Positions 308 through 863 of a stretch of 4,514 bases of DNA are shown here, piece by piece (within the stretch, counting starts at the first letter, position 1; the number at the start of each line of letters is the position of its first letter). The position numbers and the translations under genes are program-made. The DNA is from a virus (taxonomy: Duplodnaviria; Heunggongvirae; Uroviricota; Caudoviricetes). The notes below the pieces were generated by a model. It ran no database searches. It was not told where the DNA came from and saw only the letters and a program-made list of their open reading frames with translations. Where the stretch lies: IMG/VR virus record IMGVR_UViG_2667527717_000011. One strand, 5' to 3'.

Positions 308-541
308 ATGGGGAACGAAAAGAGCTTAGCGCACACACGATGGAACTGTAAATATCACATAGTTTTTGCGCCAAAATACCGAAGACAAGTGTTCTACAGA
401 GAGAAGCGTAGAGCAACAGGCAGTATTTTGAGAAAGCTGTGTGAGTGGAAAAGTGTACAGATTCTGGAAGCTGAATACTGTGCAGATCATATCCATAACA
501 ACATTTACCATCATCGCGGATATGGCCAAAAAAGTGGCTGA
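308..541 (+). pseudogene. tnpA: IS200/IS605-family Y1 transposase TnpA, 3'-truncated remnant (reads into foreign sequence after His63, stop at 539-541)
   Basis: ATG at 308 preceded by SD. N-terminal 63 aa are IS200 TnpA-like, then NNIYHHRGYGQKSG* with no transposase similarity. Expected length ~150 aa. The 6-frame ORF 257..541 is an upstream extension of this frame. Confidence 0.8.
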
Positions 542-863
542 AGATGATGCAGAAGTCTCATCCATAACCAAGCCGGGTGCAGAAATTCATGAGTCTTAGC
601 CCACCTCTGGTGATATTAAACGTGCGCAGGGGGCATAACTGATTCTCGCCAATGGTATGAATCTGGAATTATGGTTCCAGCGCTTTTGCCAGCATCTCAA
701 TGAGGTTCCAGAGGTGATTGTCTCTTCGGGTGTGACACCGGTAGGGCTCACCAAAGGGCCCTATGAGGGCAAACCTACCCCCCAATGCCTGGATGTCGCC
801 AGATAACGCTCTGATTTACATTGTTAATATTCGTGATGCTTTAATAAAATACGATCCGGAAAA
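495..863 (+). pseudogene. sitA: sitA/yfeA-family periplasmic Mn2+/Fe2+-binding protein (ABC transporter substrate-binding component), internal fragment with two in-frame stops and one frameshift
   Basis: Translation ITTFTIIADMAKKVAEDDAEVSSITKPGAEIHES*PTSGDIKRAQGA*LILANGMNLELWFQRF...GPYEGKPT, then (after a shift in the C6 run at 778-783) NAWMSPDNALIYIVNIRDALIKYDPEN. This aligns to the N-terminal half of SitA/YfeA-type binding proteins as I recall them. TAG at 597-599 and TAA at 636-638 are in frame. The N-terminus (signal peptide) and C-terminal half are missing. Confidence 0.6.

Follow-up and report, generated by a model that had tools for sequence, protein, structure and literature searches.

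The DNA analysed here is a stretch of 4,514 nt (the window), filed as IMG/VR virus record IMGVR_UViG_2667527717_000011, and the feature of interest is a short remnant of the gene sitA within it. The sitA gene encodes the periplasmic Fe/Mn-binding component of the SitABCD ATP-binding cassette (ABC) importer. At 498–863, a dead piece from the N-terminal lobe of this SitA/YfeA-type binding-protein gene is left, a relic without function. This relic very probably belongs to the insertion sequence (IS)-scarred region just downstream of aggR on the pAA virulence plasmids of enteroaggregative Escherichia coli (EAEC). This degree of confidence is a joint one, covering the assignment of the relic to the pAA aggR region, its lack of function and the origin of its apparent prophage neighbourhood from joined draft pieces.

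The identity of the remnant is evident from both protein and DNA comparisons. A first-pass annotation, made from the letters of the window alone, had recognized the N-terminal half of a SitA/YfeA-type protein and proposed a protein-family search of 495–863. This search gave a significant TroA-like match, with the stitched translation aligning to Pfam ZnuA (PF01297) at E=2.4e-29 and 103 bits (cut-off 29) over profile positions 3–126 of 263. NCBIfam models of Mn/Fe binding proteins (lipoproteins) also match the stitched peptide, at E values of ~1e-17 to 1e-18; the scores stay well short of the full-length cut-offs, as would be expected of a fragment. At the DNA level, the remnant aligns with nt 96–469 of the 915 nt of sitA at ~91% identity (E about 1e-144 to 1e-150), and annotated sitA genes in ~2,600 records are matched at 91% nucleotide identity. 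The two intact genes used as references for mapping, the plasmid sitA of pAPEC2908 and the chromosomal sitA of strain AR_0077, are 91.3–91.6% identical to it. In a search of 5.8 billion protein sequences and 185,579 species genomes, the closest proteins were E. coli/Shigella SitA (88–89%), followed by those of Phytobacter (85%) and Salmonella (79%), and no intact allele above 89% amino-acid identity was found. Both the nucleotide identity and the best protein matches thus identify the remnant as orthologous to sitA, and the first recognition of the fragment is upheld.

The lesions of the gene were mapped by the alignment to intact sitA that had also been proposed. The two nonsense codons fall at codons 67 and 80 of SitA and the net +1 shift at 777–785. 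The TAG at 597–599, the TAA at 636–638, the C6 run at 778–783 and the IS3-family repeat from 864 are all present in the sequence where they had been reported. The reported absence of a start codon and signal peptide is likewise confirmed by the mapping to codons ~33–155, with the first 99 nt of sitA and everything after nt 465 lost. The frameshift had been placed inside the C6 run. The reading frame does shift by +1 after this run, so the shift itself stands, but the extra base is not uniquely placeable inside the run. On comparison of the two sequences, the simplest account would be an A-to-C substitution that lengthened the C run, together with one extra A at 784–785.

A functional SitA is not encoded by this segment. 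There is no complete two-lobe open reading frame (ORF) with a start codon and signal peptide, as only codons ~33–155 of 304 are left and these are interrupted by two in-frame stops and the frameshift. The metal ligands of TroA-like proteins, by the family assignment made for PsaA and MntC, are two histidines of the N-lobe and a glutamate and an aspartate of the C-lobe. The histidine codons of the EIHE and PHAWM motifs are recognizable in the remnant and the whole C-lobe is absent, leaving the set of four ligands incomplete. At 14 positions, a residue that never varies in the Enterobacterales used for comparison has been replaced. The operon partners sitB, sitC and sitD are not in the window. 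The remnant is thus without function, as it has neither a full-length ORF nor the ligands of the C-lobe, and its operon partners are missing as well.

It could be argued that the gene is intact in the organism and that its stops and frameshift arose as consensus errors, as the window is a low-quality draft containing Ns and one of the lesions lies at a homopolymer, a typical site of error. This is almost certainly wrong. A sequence identical to the remnant, lesions included, occurs in at least 16 independent complete plasmids, and the lesions are therefore not read errors. In addition, 60% of the gene is gone whatever the status of the point lesions, and the 14 replacements at invariant residues are not accounted for by such errors. 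The coordinates of the remnant, its lesions and the other features of the window are collected in Table 1.

Table 1. Features of the 4,514-nt window (positions counted from its first letter).
Positions	Strand	Feature	Remarks
1–72	-	Internal fragment of eutH (core chromosomal gene)	98.6% identity in 5,410 of 5,426 complete E. coli genomes; inside the coding sequence
73–160	+	pAA-plasmid sequence upstream of the IS200C fragment	Part of the 73–938 plasmid block
161–497	+	Left 337 bp of IS200C, internally truncated	97.6% identity to complete IS200C
174–298	+	RNA element of the IS200C 5′ untranslated region	Rfam STnc490, 140.5 bits, model positions 1–124 of 124
308–497	+	IS200C tnpA, codons 1–64 of 152	Fragment
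498–863	+	sitA remnant	366 bp; sitA nt 100–465, codons ~33–155 of 304, N-terminal lobe
597–599	+	Nonsense codon TAG	CAG (Gln67) in intact sitA; present in all plasmid variants examined
636–638	+	Nonsense codon TAA	CAA (Gln80) in intact sitA; present in all plasmid variants examined
777–785	+	Frameshift region	A-C6-AA in the window, AA-C5-A in intact sitA; net +1
864–938	+	Left terminal repeat and first 75 bp of an IS629/IS1203-like IS3-family element	Window breaks off here
939–941		NNN join	Plasmid sequence stops there
942–1083	-	Internal fragment of hyfI (core chromosomal gene), 142 bp	100% identity; inside the coding sequence
1084–1086		NNN join	Followed by isolated Ns at 1092, 1098, 1102, 1103 and 1107
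1087–4257	-	DLP12-like lambdoid prophage segment	99.8% identity to E. coli 7CC, and annotation

The plasmid origin of the remnant follows from the block in which it lies. The segment 73–938 is 99.5% identical to plasmid p266917_2_01 and 100% identical to other plasmids. At 99.5–100% identity it is found in 13 PLSDB plasmids, all of them from E. coli, and in at least 27 RefSeq plasmids; the stretch 440–900 alone is 100% identical to many E. coli plasmids. Within the 5,426 complete E. coli genomes, the relic occurs at ≥98.9% identity in 37 records, all of which are plasmids of 77–167 kb. The next best match is live sitA at 91.6%, leaving a clean gap within the species between the relic and the functional gene. 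The plasmid of E. coli 55989 (NC_011752.1) carries the remnant at 99.2% identity. Furthermore, the hybrid ORF formed by the IS200C and sitA fragments is indexed in 771 blocks of a public assembly collection.

On p266917_2_01, the block follows aggR at a distance of ~2.3 kb; aap and aar are located farther upstream, and idi and the AAF/I fimbrial genes downstream. The genes aggR, aap and aar lie 2–5 kb upstream of the block in all plasmid contexts examined and, like aat and the AAF fimbrial genes, fall outside the window. The gene order aar-aap-aggR-IS1′-(IS110′)-IS200C′-sitA′-IS3′-idi was found in every copy examined, namely in four complete plasmids (p266917_2_01, p15648-3, pBEC1-S17-ESBL-09_1 and pNORD58_1) and in the 10 assembly places shown for the hybrid ORF. 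RefSeq already holds a pseudogene at exactly the coordinates of the remnant on these four plasmids. It was called by the Prokaryotic Genome Annotation Pipeline (PGAP) as a metal ABC transporter solute-binding protein of the Zn/Mn family that is frameshifted, has an internal stop and lacks its N- and C-termini. The relic is already known in this sense. The aggR/relic block is also seen, together with F-type transfer and partition genes, within chromosome-sized contigs of four NCBI records of 6–7 Mb (CP050208–CP050222; contigs of 6.3–7.1 Mb). These records could represent integrated plasmids, or a chromosome and a plasmid that were concatenated during assembly.

The fate of the remaining sit genes can be followed on the complete plasmids. 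It had been suggested that intact sitBCD, if not lost, might be found beyond the N gap of the window. Past this point, the complete plasmids continue with the rest of the IS3 fragment and then with unrelated genes, and sitBCD are not among them. On the complete 129.6-kb carrier plasmid, blastn found no sit-derived DNA beyond sitA nt 96–469, and tblastn with SitB, SitC and SitD returned only generic ABC ATPase similarity at 24%.

The window itself is a mosaic. The plasmid and hyfI sequences do not run on across the NNN joins, and the hyfI piece, present in the chromosomes of 4,295 genomes, never occurs on plasmids. The prophage segment carries the 5′ part of a lysozyme gene, a holin gene, Q, ylcG, rusA, ybcO, ninE and ybcN; the lysozyme gene is cut at the 1087 join, and the prophage match stops at 4257. 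None of the complete genomes contains more than 72% of the window contiguously. The adjacency of remnant and prophage is best explained by the joining of unrelated draft pieces (eutH, the plasmid piece, hyfI and the prophage), and we infer that the joins are artefactual. The hyfI piece of 142 bp stands alone between two NNN joins and looks like a read-sized orphan contig in a concatenated draft.

The isolated Ns that follow the second join lie in the first 21 prophage bases and are not at sites that differ between two prophage relatives; they probably reflect poor base calling at the end of a contig. The idea that they mark disagreements between a continuation of hyfI and the prophage was dropped, as the test was non-discriminating at any offset. 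Apparent links between the IS3 end and the prophage in matches to O157:H7 were also discarded, as they arise from separate pieces merged around IS1203 copies elsewhere in that prophage.

The first-pass annotation had read the remnant as lying beside the lysis genes of a prophage. On that account the sitA fragment would be cargo of an adjacent chromosomal lambdoid prophage, eroding in place. Intact sitABCD can indeed sit at a prophage edge, as it does by the tail-fibre genes in CFT073, and the window shows the fragment ~220 bp from the lysozyme gene. Nevertheless, the linkage is not uninterrupted: two NNN joins and the unrelated internal fragment of hyfI intervene, and the lysozyme gene is itself truncated at the second of these joins. 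All 37 near-identical copies of the remnant are plasmid-borne by aggR, and in none of the 5,426 complete genomes do the remnant and the prophage piece adjoin. The account can be considered largely refuted already and is very improbable.

The left end of the plasmid block requires separate consideration, as several points weigh against the reading of the window as pAA plasmid sequence set among unrelated draft pieces. The join of eutH to plasmid DNA at 72/73 carries no Ns. It is also not at the boundary of a multi-copy repeat and may, with low probability, reflect a real rearrangement in the source strain. The order of the IS and deletion events proposed below was inferred and not observed. Finally, no specific account of a sitA relic on pAA turned up in the literature searched, so that its status as already known refers to the RefSeq annotation only.

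The 72/73 junction may be chimeric, or it may reflect a real rearrangement. In the latter case, the aggR-proximal piece of pAA, relic included, would have moved into the chromosome at eutH, and this junction would be genuine even if the NNN joins are not. The uninterrupted sequence at 72/73 speaks for such a capture. So does the fact that no high-copy repeat has its edge at 73, so that a break through simple repeat collapse offers no explanation. Position 73 had been tried as a multi-copy repeat edge that caused a contig break and was rejected, the IS110-like element upstream being confined to these plasmids; the only multi-copy element near the junction is IS200C, from ~161. On the other side, neither the 5,426 complete genomes nor the 10 assembly contexts examined contain the junction. 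The piece of eutH comes from an arbitrary place inside the gene, no IS end lies at the join, and the same window demonstrably strings unrelated fragments together. The capture is accordingly improbable, and a pAA plasmid piece joined to a chromosomal fragment in a draft assembly is the preferred reading of this end as well.

The age of the relic was approached through its substitutions. Live sitA alleles of E. coli and Shigella differ by 1–2% over the span of the remnant, with the relic 8–9% from all of them, and the relic differs from pAPEC2908 sitA by 15 synonymous and 16 non-synonymous changes. Changes were polarized with sitA of Phytobacter, Yokenella, Enterobacter or Salmonella as the outgroup. 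The relic branch carries 20–24 changes, spread as 6/8/10 over the first, second and third codon positions in the polarization with 24. The live sitA branch carries 5–8 changes, all but one of them at third positions, with a pattern of 0/0/7 in the polarization with seven. This pattern is the signature of a long period without selection, starting near the split of the relic and live E. coli lineages.

Variation among the plasmids gives a second view of this decay. The length of the C run differs between lineages, with C6 in the window and p266917_2_01, C7 in p15648-3 and pNORD58_1, and C9 in pBEC1-S17-ESBL-09_1. These differences could be due to slippage, or to homopolymer sequencing error in some of the assemblies. 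Some plasmid lineages carry further lineage-specific 1-nt deletions in the relic. Overall, the relic has 1.6 variable sites per 100 bp and five indel columns, as against 1.0 per 100 bp in the downstream DNA, and there is no special conservation of the relic relative to its flanks. As both stops are present in all variants, the C run is variable and the variability is no lower than that of the flanks, the inactivation is older than the radiation of the pAA plasmids of today, and slippage would still be going on. The first-pass annotation had seen a snapshot of cargo being eroded. The shared stops and the neutral distribution over codon positions do not agree with this; the relic is an old, neutrally decaying fossil that is fixed across the plasmid family and not a case of ongoing erosion.

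It may also be asked whether the relic has been co-opted, either as a transcript or small ORF downstream of aggR (e.g., 657–806, 49 amino acids) or as a spacer kept for the adjoining IS200-derived RNA. The block is kept in every pAA plasmid examined, and a full-length STnc490 element lies 200 bp upstream. However, linkage to aggR explains the retention, the variability of the relic is no lower than that of the downstream DNA, frame-changing indels differ among lineages and the substitutions are even over the codon positions. Co-option therefore has very little probability, and neutral decay remains the preferred account. The RNA element is an observation in its own right: STnc490 is the Hfq-binding RNA of the IS200 5′ untranslated region, and it survives here although tnpA is cut at codon 64. 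On the pAA plasmids it is located ~2 kb downstream of aggR. It is the sole Rfam match in the window, in which no tRNA genes were found.

The two boundaries of the relic are of different kinds. The earlier description of an IS200 fragment and an IS3-family end on either side holds, with matches of 97.6% to IS200C and of 96% to IS1203. The start at 495 was correct to within 3 nt; the actual junction with IS200C is at 497/498, where the interior of tnpA (codon 64 of 152) is joined to sitA nt 100, and the trinucleotide CAT at 494–496 is a microhomology common to both parents. Pfam Y1_Tnp matches the resulting hybrid ORF. As this boundary is not at an IS terminus, it is a scar of deletion or illegitimate recombination. 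The right boundary at 864 is a genuine IS terminus, where an IS3-type terminal repeat begins TGAACTGCCCGGG. An O157:H7 genome has two IS1203 copies, and 864–937 matches the transposase-proximal end of each at 96% identity, with the terminal inverted repeat and the start of orfA present. On the complete plasmids the IS3 fragment is itself partial, comprising IS nt 1–421 at 95% identity. Among pAA plasmids, this fragment (L001, 6425–6843) shows 5.7 variable sites per 100 bp, compared with 1.0–1.6 in its surroundings, which might reflect gene conversion from other IS629/IS1203 copies.

From these boundaries, a history of the region can be proposed. The ancestor of the pAA plasmid region would have carried an E. 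coli/Shigella-type sit locus. An IS629/IS1203-like element may then have inserted between nt 465 and 466 of sitA, an event marked by the IS terminus preserved intact at 864. Later deletions would have taken the distal two thirds of the IS, the rest of sitA and sitBCD. In a separate illegitimate join, the interior of IS200C tnpA would have been fused to codon 33 of sitA at the CAT microhomology. The orphan 366 bp would since have drifted neutrally, gaining two nonsense codons, the frameshift, the 14 replacements and a slippage-prone poly-C run. A bolder proposal is that the relic preserves a fossil sit lineage, one that diverged from the ancestor of every E. coli/Shigella sit allele sampled and, separately, that 72/73 is a genuine chromosomal capture; this combination is considered unlikely.

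If the relic does represent such a fossil sit lineage, the aggR island of pAA was built on DNA that once carried a sit locus. In that case its neutral decay, with ~6.6% on its own branch against ≤1.1% within the family, could date the origin of the pAA aggR region. The biological weight of the relic is otherwise small, as it is one more pseudogene scar on an IS-rich virulence plasmid and mechanistically nothing new. There are, nonetheless, practical consequences. The NNN joins in draft windows can juxtapose unrelated DNA, and accounts based on genomic context therefore need a check of the joins first. Since 40% of the length of sitA is represented in the relic at 91% identity, partial sitA matches are possible in in silico virulence screens of EAEC. 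The IS200C′-sitA′-IS3′ block provides a compact and specific sequence marker for the aggR region of pAA plasmids. Within it, the poly-C run and the lineage-specific indels separate sub-lineages, one being the 55989-type (E. coli 55989 and NCCP15648) and the other the variant in the window.

The relic can be compared with the closest known systems. With E. coli/Shigella sitA (pAPEC2908, WP_000949004.1; chromosomal, WP_000555620.1) it shares ~91% nucleotide and 89% amino-acid identity over nt 96–469, including the N-lobe sequence with its EIHE and PHAWM histidine motifs, and it clusters with these alleles and not with those of Phytobacter or Salmonella. It differs from them in that 40% of the gene is left, without start codon, signal peptide, C-terminal lobe or sitBCD; in its two nonsense codons and frameshift; and in its distance of 8–9% from every live allele, where live alleles are 1–2% apart.

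The prophage-borne sitABCD of the uropathogen CFT073 is a sit–prophage association of the kind that the first-pass annotation had in mind. In CFT073, the operon adjoins tail-fibre genes and not lysis genes, and sitBCD are annotated as intact, whereas the relic in the window is without a physical link to the prophage. RefSeq flags the chromosomal sitA of this reference strain (L003, 7905–8841) as frameshifted. A further counterpart is the PGAP pseudogene of the pAA plasmids (C4R22_RS29350 on NZ_CP026724.1; A610_RS29800 on NZ_CP009053.1), with which the relic agrees in sequence (99.5–100%), in its boundaries and in the IS200 and IS3 fragments on either side. As far as the relic is concerned, the two do not differ. 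The window differs in having eutH and hyfI fragments instead of the plasmid neighbours, which are IS110′, IS1′ and aggR upstream and the rest of IS3′ and idi downstream.
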